Of a stretch of DNA of 32,000 nucleotides, positions 4,097 to 8,062 are shown piece after piece (the stretch's first letter is position 1; the number at the start of each line of letters is the position of its first letter). Both the position numbers and the translations under genes were made by a program. The notes under the pieces were generated by a model. It worked only from the letters and a program-made list of their open reading frames with translations, did not search any database and was not told where the DNA came from. Source of the stretch: Blochmannia endosymbiont of Camponotus modoc (GTDB lineage Bacteria; Pseudomonadota; Gammaproteobacteria; Enterobacterales; Enterobacteriaceae); assembly GCF_023585785.1 (NCBI RefSeq), contig NZ_CP097765.1, positions 150,001 to 182,000 on the forward strand, given 5' to 3'.

Positions 4097-4639
4097 TTAT
4101 TTCTTTTTTGGTGCTAAAATCATAGTCATTTGGCGCCCTTCAATTTTATTAGAAAAAAATTCTACTGTTGTTAACTCATGCAATTCATGACGTATTCGGT
4201 ATAATATTTTTGCTCCAAGGTGGTGGTGCACCAATTCTCCTCCTCTAAAACGTAAGGTGATTTTGACTTTATCTCCTTCATTAAGGAATTTAATTAAATT
4301 ACGCAATTTGACTTGATAGTCTCCTTCATCAGTGCTTGGTCTGAATTTTATTTCTTTGACATGAATCACCTTTTGTTTTTTCTTTTGTTCTTTTGTAGAT
4401 TTATTCTTTTCGTATAGAAATTTACCGTAGTTCATAATTCTACACACAGGTGGATCGGAATTAGGGCTAACTTCAACTAAATCAAGACCGATGTCTTCGG
4501 ATTGCTTCAGCGCTTCATATAAACTAACCACACCAATTTGTTTTCCGTCTACTCCGGTTAGACGGACTTTTTCAGCACTAATTTCTCTGTTAATACGATT
4601 TAATCGTATTGATTGTATTTTTTTTGCGAATTTAATAAT
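4097..4639 (-). CDS. infC: Translation initiation factor IF-3, with a non-canonical ATT start
   Basis: The track ORF starts at GTG 4531, but IF-3 homology continues upstream in frame: (I)[43 protein letters not shown] versus E. coli [43 protein letters not shown]. There is no ATG, GTG or TTG in frame between the thrS stop (4643) and 4531. Tandem ATT codons lie at 4639-4637 and 4636-4634. GGAGG at 4652-4648 is 8 nt upstream of the first. The start is uncertain by 3 nt. Confidence 0.88.
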
Positions 4640-4642
4640 ATG

Positions 4643-5887
4643 TTATTCCTCCATTTGATGAAGACTGTAACTGTTAATTTCACGTAGTAATTTTTTTATA
4701 AATATATCAATATTACAGTTTTTTAATGTTTGACCTCGATATGTACGTATAGCTACTGTATTTTGATTCATTTCTTTATTTCCGCAAATTAACATATAAG
4801 GTATGCGTTGTAAGGTGTAATAACGAATTTTAAATCCTATTTTCTCATTTCTCAAGTCTACTTTTGTTCTTATTTTTTTATTTATTAGCTTTTTTTCTAT
4901 AATAGAAACATATTCAGATTGTTGATCAGTGACATTCATGAGCACAACCTGTGTTGGGGCTAACCACGTTGGGAAAAATCCTGCGTATTCTTCTGTTATT
5001 AAACCAATAAATCGTTCCATGGAACCAAGGATTGCTCTATGAATCATTACGGGGACTACACGATTATTATGATGATCGATATAACGTGCGTTTAATAGAT
5101 TTGGCAAAGAAAAATCTAATTGTATTGTACCACATTGCCAAGTTCTATCTACAGAATCAAGTAAAGCAAATTCTATTTTAGGACCGTAAAATGCACCATC
5201 ATTAGGTTGATATTGAAATGAAATATTATTGTGTTGAAGTACAGTAGATAAATGTTGTTCTGCCGTATCCCATATCGAATCTGTACCAATTCGCTTTGTA
5301 GGACGAGTAGATAATTTTACTAAAATTGTTTTAAAACCGAATGTATTATATATATCGTACATCATTTTAATACAGTGGTTTAATTCGTCGAATATTTGTG
5401 TTTTTGTACAAAAAATATGACCATCATCTTGGGTAAATTCGCGTGTTCTCATGAGTCCATGTAAAGACCCAGATGGTTCGTTTCTATGACAATTTCCAAA
5501 TTCAGCTATACGATAAGGCAAATCTTTATAAGACTTAATACCTTGATTAAAAATTTGAATATGTCCTGGACAATTCATCGGTTTAATACAATATTCATGA
5601 CTTTCTGAAGAAGTAGTAAATATATGCTCATGATAATTATCCCAGTGGCCTGTTTTTTTCCATAATGTATGATTAATCATGGCAGGACTTTTCACTTCTT
5701 GATATTTATATACTTTAAGTTGCGTTCGTATAATTTTTTTTAACTCTTGTAATAAAATCCATCCATTTTGATGCCAAAATACCATACCGGGAGCATCTTT
5801 TTGTGTATGGTATAAGTGTAGTTGTTTCGCAAGGTTGCGATGATCATTTTTTTTAGGTGTTTGTGACATATTTTGTGAGTTATACAT
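4643..5887 (-). CDS. thrS: Threonine--tRNA ligase, catalytic core plus anticodon-binding domain only; TGS and editing domains absent
   Basis: The 414-aa ORF aligns from [26 protein letters not shown] (E. coli [26 protein letters not shown], about residue 242 of 642, from memory) to the C-terminus (...SLHQMEE versus ...SLKQLEE). An in-frame TAA at 5899-5897 blocks any N-terminal extension. Confidence 0.9.
4648..4652 (-). promoter_or_regulatory. Shine-Dalgarno (GGAGG) for infC, embedded in the last codons of thrS
   Basis: Minus strand reads ...ATG GAG GAA TAA CAT ATT ATT AAA.... GGAGG spans the thrS codons Glu-Glu and lies 8 nt before ATT 4639. Confidence 0.55.
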
Positions 5888-6310
5888 TATTATTTTTTAG
5901 TTCTATAAAGACCACAAATACGTGTAATTTTTAATTTTACTGTTTTCGATCTAATAAAATTCAGAAATTTTAGATAATTTAAAATTCTGATAAAAATTGA
6001 TGTTGAGTATGTAGTCCATGATATATATTTATATATTTTTCATGATAATATAACCTGGCATGTTCAATAGGGTAAATATTTTTTCATTTATAACTGATAT
6101 TTTATATATTTTCAGAAAATGATAGATACAGTTTATTTGGTTTTCTTGCAGATAACGTCGGTTATAATATTTGTATTCTTATTAGCAATCATTAGTCATT
6201 AGCTATGATTCTTGTAATTACTAGGTTACCTTGAGCAAGGTACAAGATCTATATCATAATAAAATCCTATGTTTGTTATTGGACTGAATACTATCTGGTT
6301 GCGTTATTAT
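5888..6310 (-). pseudogene. Decayed 5' part of thrS: TGS domain and remnant of the N2 editing domain, in several frames with stops and an internal deletion
   Basis: These minus-strand fragments are co-linear with E. coli ThrRS residues about 3-226. 6310->6257 IITQPDSIQSNNKHRILL* versus VITLPDGSQRHYDH. 6239->6192 LAQGNLVITRIIAND* versus AGRVNGELVDACDLIEND. 6192->6133 MIANKNTNIITDVICKKTK* versus ..AQLSIITAKDEEG. 6083->5979 KNIYPIEHARLYYHEKYINIYHGLHTQHQF.. versus [31 protein letters not shown]. 5928->5890 [12 protein letters not shown] versus LQRIYGTAWADKK. The fragments use three different frames. Confidence 0.7.
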
Positions 6311-6964
6311 AATAATAAACTAATTTTTTTTCACTGCGTGTCCCATTAAATATGCGCAAGAAAGTAATCACATGTTATCTTACATCATAGTCTGTATAAT
6401 AAACCCAATGTTTAAATTATGATGTATTAAAGCGACAATATCAATCAGATTAACCATTGTTTGCTTAAATAAATAATTTTTTACTTAAATTTAAATGCGT
6501 ATCCCGATAAACTTATAAAAGAGATACAATATAATTATATTGATTTTTCGTTTCATAAGGTTACAGCAAGATCATGATTCACTTATACTATAGATATTTC
6601 ATATAGTCATTTGTTATAATAGGATTGAATGTTTTCAACCTATTTTCAATTTTTCATTGGGTTCTATACCCACCCATCATGTAGAATCATTAAATATTAA
6701 ATATATCATTTATATATTTACTTATTATCCCTATGATGTAATTTAAGGATAATAATTTATTTTGAAGAAATAATAGAGTACCTGTAAAGATTTTAATTTA
6801 TTGGATGTTTATAAAATATTTTCCTCACATAGTAACATCTATTTCATTTTATCATAATATTATTGTGTGTGAAGAATATAAAACACTAAAAATTATGTTT
6901 AATTTAACTGATTTTTTTTAAATTATTAATAATAATATTAATTTTTAATTAATACATATATATT

Positions 6965-7153
6965 TTATAAGGAAGTGTACGAAGGTTCATTTTTAGAAAT
7001 TAATTCTTTTCTATGTTCTACCAAATGCTGGAACTTATGATTAGTAGTTCCTGTCATCTTTGGGTTTAATCAGTCTATTTGTAACAAATTGCTAACTTTT
7101 TCTATCTTGAGTTTATAAAGATTATGATTTTTTAAAATAAATAATAATTTTTT
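6965..7153 (-). pseudogene. Possible relic of a DNABII (IHF-beta/HU-like) gene, interrupted by an in-frame TGA
   Basis: This patch is less A+T-rich than its surroundings. Minus-strand frame reads KKLLFILKNHNLYKLKIEKVSNLLQID*LNPKMTGTTNHKFQHLVEHRKELISKNEPSYTSL*. It loosely resembles E. coli IhfB ...[56 protein letters not shown]. The similarity is weak and hand-aligned only. Confidence 0.25.
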
Positions 7154-8062
7154 TAATCAATTATTAAATACATTTAATAATTAAAAATCAGGTTAATTTT
7201 GTATTAAAATTTTTTATTAATATGTATTAAAAAATCTAATGAAATATAAGTTAATTTAAGTTTATTTAAAATAAAACACCCCAGAATTCTTTAAAAAAAT
7301 GAATATTTATAGGTCACTATATATATCTATTTTTTGATTTACTATATAAAGACACAAGGCACCATTTTTATAGTATTTTATATACTTTATCGCATTGTAT
7401 TTTTTATTTAAATAATCATATTTTATTATTATAATTTTTGATATATTGCAATGATGTAATTTTATCAATAATATTGATATGGGTTTTTTGTAAAAGTAAA
7501 CATACTAATCATAATAAGTTATAATATACATGATATAGATATAATCTGTCAACAATTGTCATTAATGTAATAATATTGATGAATATTAACAAAAATTCAA
7601 AATCTATATAATAATAACATTTATAAATGATAACAAAATGATAGATATCCAACAAAGTTTAGAAAATCAATAAATATCATTTTTTATGATTTTTGAGTTA
7701 ATGTTATATTGTAAGTCGTTCAGGATCATATTCTCATTTATTATTGATGCTGAGCTCAGTAAAACTTAATTGTTAAAACATTAAATGTTTGATTTATTCA
7801 TACTGAATTTATGATAATTTTTTACTATAATTAATATATATTGTGTTATTGAATTTATATATTTATACTTTGATTAAAAATTTTTTAAACAGATATCATC
7901 ATGATTATAGTAATTTTAAAAAGTTGTAAACATTCCTAATTGCATAACAAATAAAATGAATCAAGATATTTGTATGAAATATAAAAATTTAGGTATTTTT
8001 TTTAAAAAATGATTTTCAATTAGAAAATTTTTATTATTAATTCAAGATTTTAGTGTGGGATT

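Follow-up and report, generated by a model that had tools for sequence, protein, structure and literature searches.

What remains of threonyl-tRNA synthetase (ThrRS) when the part of its gene that encodes the editing domain falls out of frame, and what becomes of the abandoned sequence? The question is raised by the thrS gene in a stretch of 32,000 nucleotides (nt) from the Blochmannia endosymbiont of Camponotus modoc (contig NZ_CP097765.1, positions 150,001 to 182,000). This whole stretch is called the window below, and positions are counted within it. A reading made from the sequence alone had described this thrS as a core devoid of editing, preceded by frameshifted and partly deleted remains of TGS and editing-domain sequence. 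It did not record that the truncated gene was already annotated, as a protein of 408 amino acids (aa), nor that truncation recurs across the genus. The analysis reported here leads to the following answer: very probably, thrS is naturally truncated at its N-terminus and has lost editing, its former 5' part persists upstream as a neutrally decaying relic of full length, and such truncation is recurrent in Blochmannia.

The retained core and the decayed sequence upstream

The longest thrS open reading frame (ORF) occupies positions 4643 to 5887 of the minus strand (414 aa). It is preceded by an in-frame TAA, as the sequence-only reading had noted. Pfam recognises only two domains in this ORF, tRNA-synt_2b (1.2e-56) followed by HGTP_anticodon (7.2e-18). 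Each passes its gathering cut-off, and neither TGS nor tRNA_SAD was found. The description of the gene as an editing-less core is thus upheld. Indeed, the core aligns with residues 240-642 of E. coli ThrRS and with the deltaN constructs 1evk and 1evl (E ~1e-193). Its nearest relatives are Blochmannia ThrRS proteins, and it is identical at 400 of 400 positions to the annotated threonine--tRNA ligase of the C. modoc Blochmannia endosymbiont.

The core is under strong purifying selection. The ratio of non-synonymous to synonymous substitution (dN/dS, NG86) is 0.076 against B. pennsylvanicus BPEN and 0.081 against B. vicinus, within an overall range of 0.076-0.14 at dS values of up to 0.52, and stops are present in none of the 16 truncated orthologues. 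The active-site zinc ligands (E. coli C334, H385 and H511) are invariant across 31 Blochmannia ThrRS proteins, as are R363, E365, D383, Y462, K465, Q484 and R520, which include the class II motif 2 and 3 residues. Because selection is strong and the active-site residues are intact, the 408-aa core is expected to retain the ability to charge tRNA-Thr.

The start that would give the 414-aa form is probably not the real one. The ATG at 5887 is in frame only in the symbionts of C. modoc and C. herculeanus. In B. pennsylvanicus, one extra nt between the two ATGs puts it out of frame, and the conserved start is therefore the ATG at 5869, found across the pennsylvanicus/modoc/herculeanus clade. The GenBank annotation has this 408-aa form, which begins MSQTPKK and is preferable to the 414-aa ORF proposed earlier.

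The former 5' part of the gene lies immediately upstream. It extends from 6571 to 5888 (~684 nt). In MAFFT alignments with the intact 642-aa thrS genes of B. vicinus (L007) and of the C. nipponensis symbiont (L008), it matches, in co-linear order, all of their 5' ~690 nt. In a blastn comparison with the 5' 702 nt of the B. vicinus gene, the relic gives a single high-scoring segment pair (HSP) of 659 nt (relic positions 24-682; 66% identity, 134 bits, E 1e-35), the best of 100 shuffles reaching 33.7 bits. Relative to B. vicinus, 17 small indels (1-13 nt) interrupt it, 14 of them frameshifting, and there are 10 projected in-frame stops; the projected amino-acid identity is 38%. The longest ORF inside 5888-6571 has at most 27 aa, and the ancestral ATG has been lost through a 2-nt deletion at ~6571-6569.

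These alignments, together with tblastn, agree with the earlier view that ThrRS N-terminal homology lies upstream in several frames interrupted by stops, and they redraw its anatomy. The relic does not end at 6310 and continues ~260 nt further. The co-linear alignments with intact genes contain no large deletion within it, so that the loss supposed to have left ~50 nt for residues 70-160 has no counterpart. A tblastn search with E. coli ThrRS places the HxxxH region, thought to be missing, at 6361-6326 (SCAYLMGHAVKK), and residues 91-108 at 6297-6244. The DNA at 6297-6244 reads QIVFSPITNIGFYYDIDL and aligns to residues 88-104; the fragment IITQPDSIQSNNKHRI (6310-6263), formerly assigned to residues 3-18, is an out-of-frame reading of the DNA for residues 88-104. 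Recognisable pieces of the N1 domain are found further upstream, namely QYNYIVSLL (6542-6516) and LIDIVALIHHNLNIGFI (6448-6398).

The position of the editing cysteine reads YINIYHG (6035-6015), as had been seen. The relic has L73, Y77 and Y182 at three of the four editing positions, H186 alone being kept, while the intact B. vicinus gene has all four residues (H73, H77, C182 and H186).

The Pfam scan that had been proposed as a check on the relic recovers neither TGS nor tRNA_SAD. The frame-corrected relic translation matches no Pfam family at E <= 10. The B. vicinus N-terminus itself gives a tRNA_SAD match (2.5e-12) and a sub-threshold TGS match (1.1e-3). The failure reflects decay and not missing homology, which is visible only against close relatives. 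The relic is best described as a unitary pseudogene fragment in which the coding sequence of N1 and N2 was never deleted, and 6571-5888 should be annotated as such. It probably serves only as a leader or spacer.

Age and recurrence of the truncation

Three observations bear on the mode of decay. Identity between relic and B. vicinus at codon positions 1, 2 and 3 is 0.63, 0.69 and 0.66, as against 0.79, 0.85 and 0.70 for the intact pair of B. vicinus and the C. nipponensis symbiont. Between the window and BPEN, the relic is 89.8% identical and the neighbouring spacer 90.2%, as compared with 93.6% for third positions of the core and 98-99% for its first and second positions. Finally, the relic and B. 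vicinus differ by p ~0.34 (Jukes-Cantor ~0.45), close to the core dS of 0.52. Because codon-position structure has been erased, the rate is that of spacer and the divergence approaches dS, the relic evolves at the neutral rate as non-coding DNA.

Most of the relic frameshifts are common to B. pennsylvanicus BPEN and B. herculeanus in the alignments. They include deletions of 5 nt at codon 10 and of 2 nt at codons 72 and 186, as well as several insertions of a single nt. B. chromaiodes carries the same 408-aa protein. Therefore, the truncation predates the radiation of the pennsylvanicus clade (the pennsylvanicus, chromaiodes, modoc and herculeanus symbionts), and assembly error is effectively ruled out. 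The crown divergence of this clade is only ~0.10-0.12. Set against a relic divergence near dS, this would mean, on a rough reckoning, that the region ceased to be coding close to the start of the stem lineage, several times as long ago as the crown began to diversify. What the locus preserves, owing to a low deletion rate, is an old relic and not, as first thought, a truncation caught in progress.

Truncation is not confined to this clade. Among complete genomes, short ThrRS proteins (402-423 aa) are encoded by B. floridanus, B. vafer, B. ocreatus, two Colobopsis symbionts and a Polyrhachis symbiont; full-length ones (642-644 aa) are encoded by B. vicinus and its relatives and by the C. nipponensis symbiont. 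Sister loci were retrieved by exact-protein look-up, a scan of the genome collection with the core protein having returned only distant proteobacteria. A neighbour-joining tree of six genes (ThrRS core, IF3, L35, L20, PheS and KdsA; 1350 columns, 200 bootstraps) has the topology (obliquus,(turneri,((vafer,floridanus),(ocreatus,(vicinus,(nipponensis,penn clade)))))), penn clade standing for the pennsylvanicus clade. The grouping of vicinus, nipponensis and the pennsylvanicus clade, with ocreatus outside, has 100% bootstrap support. Since a decayed domain cannot be regained, the ancestors leading to vicinus and nipponensis would have been intact, which points to at least five independent truncations: in the Colobopsis symbionts, the Polyrhachis symbiont, vafer/floridanus, ocreatus and the pennsylvanicus clade. 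In a tree of the ThrRS core, five further short forms from Logan contigs are interleaved with full-length ones, which suggests that truncations are more numerous than five. The new N-termini are all placed at most ~25 residues ahead of the conserved DHR(K/N)L motif, and the majority correspond to E. coli positions 229-239.

The lineages also differ in what is left of the lost part. The ocreatus relic is weaker, with lesions of its own and an intact ATG; in this relic (L009:2360-3000) the ancestral ATG and the first 9 codons (MLVIILHNE) are followed by a stop. Two Logan lineages, L018 and L019, have relics of their own. No relic was found in the kdsA-thrS spacers of floridanus, vafer, obliquus and turneri, which are shorter (886, 792, 408 and 525 bp, respectively).

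The full-length genes bear on what came before truncation. E. coli, Pantoea, Proteus, Sodalis, Biostraticola, Gullanella and B. vicinus all have H73, H77, C182 and H186. Editing residues are substituted in eight full-length Blochmannia proteins (e.g. C182L/Y/S, H186Q/N), and dN/dS of the intact genes is 0.23 in the N-terminal region versus 0.10 in the core. On account of these substitutions and of the higher ratio, ThrRS editing appears to be under relaxed constraint throughout the genus, with decay by point mutation preceding truncation.

Convergent compensatory substitutions in the truncated cores were considered and rejected, as only three weak columns emerged (Q343Y/H, A437T/S and V590I). 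Of 10 Blochmannia lineages truncated independently, 5 have Y or H in place of Q343, a change that is rare in full-length proteins; the association is weak and uncorrected for phylogeny, and the window protein keeps Q (NQG).

Consequences for editing and competing explanations

It is proposed that the N1 and N2 domains fell out of frame in an ancestor of the pennsylvanicus/chromaiodes/modoc/herculeanus clade. Translation would now start at a new ATG (5869) in the interdomain linker, ~7 residues before the start of the engineered deltaN-ThrRS. The product would be a catalytic and anticodon-binding core of 408 aa that still charges tRNA-Thr, and the former 5' third of the gene (6571-5888) would persist as neutrally decaying non-coding DNA. 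With the post-transfer editing site of N2 lost, the core would no longer hydrolyse in cis the Ser-tRNAThr that it makes. This is the consequence that had been anticipated, and the missing domain argues for it. Presumably, then, the symbiont tolerates some Thr-to-Ser mistranslation, a step drawn from the biochemistry of the E. coli and yeast mitochondrial enzymes.

The engineered E. coli deltaN-ThrRS (residues 242-642; 1EVK, 1EVL, 1FYF, 1KOG) has the same domain content and boundary, with N1 and N2 missing. It is a dimeric catalytic and anticodon-binding core, as is retained here, and residues 9-408 of the Blochmannia product align with residues 2-401 of the construct (E 1.4e-193). Its behaviour was reportedly described by Dock-Bregeon and colleagues in 2000. 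Unlike this construct, the Blochmannia core is natural, has long been maintained by selection, carries a few extra N-terminal residues and belongs to an AT-rich symbiont genome. According to PMC4267643, which cites the original work, deltaN-ThrRS activates Thr normally, charges tRNA less efficiently and does not clear Ser-tRNAThr. Deletion of the editing domain from a bacterial ThrRS leaves activation intact and makes charging less efficient, and pre-transfer editing alone fails to prevent formation of Ser-tRNAThr (PMC4267643). In E. coli, the C182A change in ThrRS hardly impairs growth, and replacement of Thr by Ser is well tolerated (PMC10057733). Loss of editing by aminoacyl-tRNA synthetases (aaRS) is common in host-restricted bacteria (PMC10057733 and PMC7373986, which cite Li et al. 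2011 and Melnikov et al. 2018).

Mycoplasma LeuRS, PheRS and ThrRS provide the same setting of reduced genomes and relaxed quality control, with editing domains mutated or deleted (PMC10057733, PMC7373986, PMC4014445). What sets Blochmannia apart from these and the pathogen cases is a dated relic together with at least five independent truncations in a single genus. Crenarchaea have split ThrRS-cat and ThrRS-ed proteins, the former being a catalytic polypeptide without an editing domain, as here; that system keeps editing on the separate protein, whereas the Blochmannia N-terminal sequence is a dead relic. Yeast mitochondrial ThrRS (MST1, ScmtThrRS) is a natural minimalist enzyme, distant in sequence (E 2e-79 versus 1e-193 for E. 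coli), eukaryotic, nuclear-encoded and co-evolved with the unusual tRNAThr1. We know of no relic of its lost editing domain. Unlike in MST1, the loss in Blochmannia is recent enough for a full-length relic to survive, and intact sister genes exist.

A serious alternative, which concerns the consequence and not the anatomy, is that mistranslation is not appreciably raised. Fidelity would be kept by pre-transfer hydrolysis of Ser-AMP at the catalytic site, by discrimination at EF-Tu or the ribosome, by a low Ser/Thr ratio in the bacteriocyte or by a trans-editing factor. Yeast mitochondrial ThrRS, naturally without an editing domain, does perform tRNA-dependent pre-transfer editing (PMC4267643), and the catalytic site of the window ThrRS is fully conserved. 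However, pre-transfer editing is insufficient in both EcThrRS and ScmtThrRS, where Ser-tRNAThr still accumulates (PMC4267643), no stand-alone N2-like protein of Blochmannia came up among annotated proteins and the truncated cores showed no convergent compensatory substitutions. Maintained fidelity is thus conceivable, if rather unlikely.

Several points weigh against the truncated, editing-less gene as pictured above. No Shine-Dalgarno sequence is evident on inspection before either the 5869 or the 5887 ATG, and the start codon, the promoter and the mischarging of the 408-aa protein are all predicted. A trans-acting editing factor might formally lie elsewhere in the genome, of which 32 kb were read directly and the remainder through its annotated proteins. 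Mistranslation could also be held down by pre-transfer editing that persists at the catalytic site, as it does in yeast mitochondrial ThrRS. Finally, a few indels appear to coincide between the ocreatus and pennsylvanicus-clade relics in the multiple alignment. A single truncation shared by the two was rejected because the tree with 100% bootstrap nests the intact vicinus and nipponensis with the pennsylvanicus clade and excludes ocreatus; since the tree leaves no room for shared ancestry, the coincidence is attributed to alignment bias or indel hot spots.

Regarding a factor acting in trans, the window contains no free-standing editing ORF. Among the annotated proteins, these genomes have no second ThrRS, so that thrS is the sole copy there, as had been supposed. 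No stand-alone N-domain or editing protein from Blochmannia was found among annotated proteins either, a weak negative as the search missed the query's own parent and seems length-biased. The search with the N-terminal domain gave only short fragments from other taxa. They include a thrS (P0022 and P0190) on a Sodalis-like JGI contig (30,458 nt, close to Sodalis ligni) that is split into N-terminal and C-terminal ORFs of 225 and 429 aa; the cause is either a frameshift from sequencing or a split or pseudogenisation of very recent date.

A further proposal, which we consider doubtful, is that repeated truncation at one boundary was favoured once the editing site had decayed, and that the relic was co-opted as a leader or internal promoter. 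A crippled N2 may waste Thr-tRNAThr or slow charging, or truncation may relieve translational autorepression by ThrRS. Co-option would explain an island of low variability within the relic (6135-5959, minus strand) that includes the motif TTTACC-N18-TATATT. In five genomes of the pennsylvanicus clade, the fraction of variable sites in this island is 0.08-0.12, whereas the other parts of relic and spacer reach ~0.2. A near-version of the motif (TTAACC...TATATT) already lies within intact B. vicinus thrS. The promoter scan returned 14 sites versus 9.8 +/- 3.5 in shuffles, which is uninformative in DNA so rich in AT. An internal promoter or leader for the truncated thrS at this place is speculative.

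It is most improbable that the whole locus is a pseudogene, with the host or some other enzyme providing Thr-tRNAThr. Essential genes can be severely truncated before they are lost altogether, and certain tiny symbiont genomes, among them those of Carsonella and Portiera, lack thrS (PMC2175510, PMC5322561). Against this stand the core dN/dS of 0.08-0.14 over dS values of up to 0.52, the absence of stops from all 16 truncated orthologues, the invariance of all catalytic residues and the fact that genomes of ~790 kb normally keep all aaRS genes (PMC11020763).

Two other explanations can be set aside. Errors arise easily in DNA rich in AT and homopolymers, and an isolated indel in a genome of this kind is sometimes an artefact, but it is barely credible that sequencing or assembly errors conceal a normal 642-aa thrS. 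The start codon is destroyed and the codon-position signal erased, 14 indels of up to 13 nt shift the frame, stops are projected at 10 places, and most of the indels recur in genomes sequenced independently, namely BPEN CP000016, two herculeanus assemblies and a second modoc assembly. Sulfolobus has split ThrRS systems (cited in PMC4267643), yet there is next to no chance that the N-terminal region is expressed as a trans-editing protein or that programmed frameshifting restores the frame, as no ORF in 5888-6571 exceeds 27 aa, the conceptual translation matches no Pfam family, L73, Y77, N180 and Y182 replace editing residues and the region is neutral.

Surroundings of the locus and meaning for the genus

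The window is AT-rich (G+C ~29%). At 99.3-99.5% identity, the DNA of the locus matches CP097758.1, a second assembly of the C. modoc symbiont; together with the 400/400 match of the core, this indicates that the window represents another isolate of that symbiont. The order on the minus strand is kdsA, a 2.2-kb gap without called gene (spacer and thrS relic), thrS, infC, rpmI, rplT and pheS. The features are collected in Table 1.

Table 1. Features of the thrS locus, in window coordinates
Feature	Coordinates	Strand	Remarks
infC	4097..4636	minus	Next operon gene; gene calls in sister locus L013 and translation IKFAKKIQ...
thrS core coding sequence	4643..5869	minus	408 aa; stop 4645-4643; class II catalytic and anticodon-binding domains
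Optional 6-codon extension MYNSQN	5870..5887	minus	Yields maximal 414-aa ORF; probably not the real start
In-frame TAA closing the core frame upstream	5897..5899	minus	Read from sequence
N2 (editing, tRNA_SAD) domain and linker relic	5888..6389	minus	~codons 63-235; MAFFT, projected lesions, tblastn with E. coli ThrRS
CxxxH remnant	6009..6053	minus	LYYHEKYINIYHGLH; D180 to N, C182 to Y (6023-6021), H186 retained
Candidate internal sigma-70-like promoter TTTACC-N18-TATATT	6047..6076	minus	Promoter scan; conserved; inside 6135-5959; speculative
HxxxH remnant	6323..6367	minus	LLSCAYLMGHAVKKN versus E. coli RHSCAHLLGHAIKQL; H73 to L, H77 to Y
N1 (TGS-like) domain relic	6390..6571	minus	~codons 1-62; alignments
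Ancestral thrS 5' flank (former promoter and leader region)	6572..6936	minus	Alignable with flank of intact genes
kdsA	8896-8063	minus	Gene call

The blastn HSP over window positions 6936-5700 matches L007 2645-3872 and L008 2608-3872, and begins ~360-390 nt upstream of the intact ATG in these two references. The spacer from kdsA to the relic (6572-8062) measures 1.5 kb, has a G+C content of 18-23% and contains no ORF longer than 53 aa. Only its proximal ~360 nt (6936-6572) align with the 5' flank of the vicinus and nipponensis thrS genes; the remainder may consist of older, unrecognisable gene relics. No Rfam family matches anywhere in the window at gathering thresholds, and the window therefore has no known leader or riboswitch.

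On the other side of thrS, infC starts with an ATT at 4636, 6 nt past the thrS stop. ATT is an unusual start codon of IF3 genes, known from E. coli. The mechanical ORF list shows infC only as a shorter ORF of 144 aa starting with GTG. In the Blochmannia-like Logan contig SRR32934495 (L019:1712-2501), no kdsA is called between prmC and thrS, which are 788 nt apart, and part of the intervening stretch is a relic of the thrS N-terminal region; apparently this lineage has lost kdsA or carries it elsewhere.

Loss of editing in reduced genomes is an established theme, and the truncated gene has long been annotated. A literature search found no description of the thrS truncation in Blochmannia, of a full-length relic, its dating, at least five truncations or mutated editing sites in full-length proteins, in a body of papers that does not extend to Melnikov et al. 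2018, which may list Blochmannia. Most known examples of editing loss are single end-states; Blochmannia displays all stages within one genus. These run from intact editing domains (vicinus) through full-length proteins with a mutated catalytic His or Cys to truncated genes, whose relic is complete in the window, partly eroded in ocreatus and in two uncharacterised lineages, and gone from floridanus, vafer, Colobopsis and Polyrhachis.

Should truncation have been favoured after decay of the editing site, the genus would offer a natural replicated series on the in vivo worth of proofreading; in any case it amounts to a replicated natural experiment on that question. The pair of C. vicinus and C. 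modoc is suited to a direct proteomic measure of the mistranslation that results from editing loss. At least five truncations ending at the same linker tightly define the functional boundary of the ThrRS core. Independent events at this one place further suggest that these symbionts pay little for Thr-to-Ser errors.

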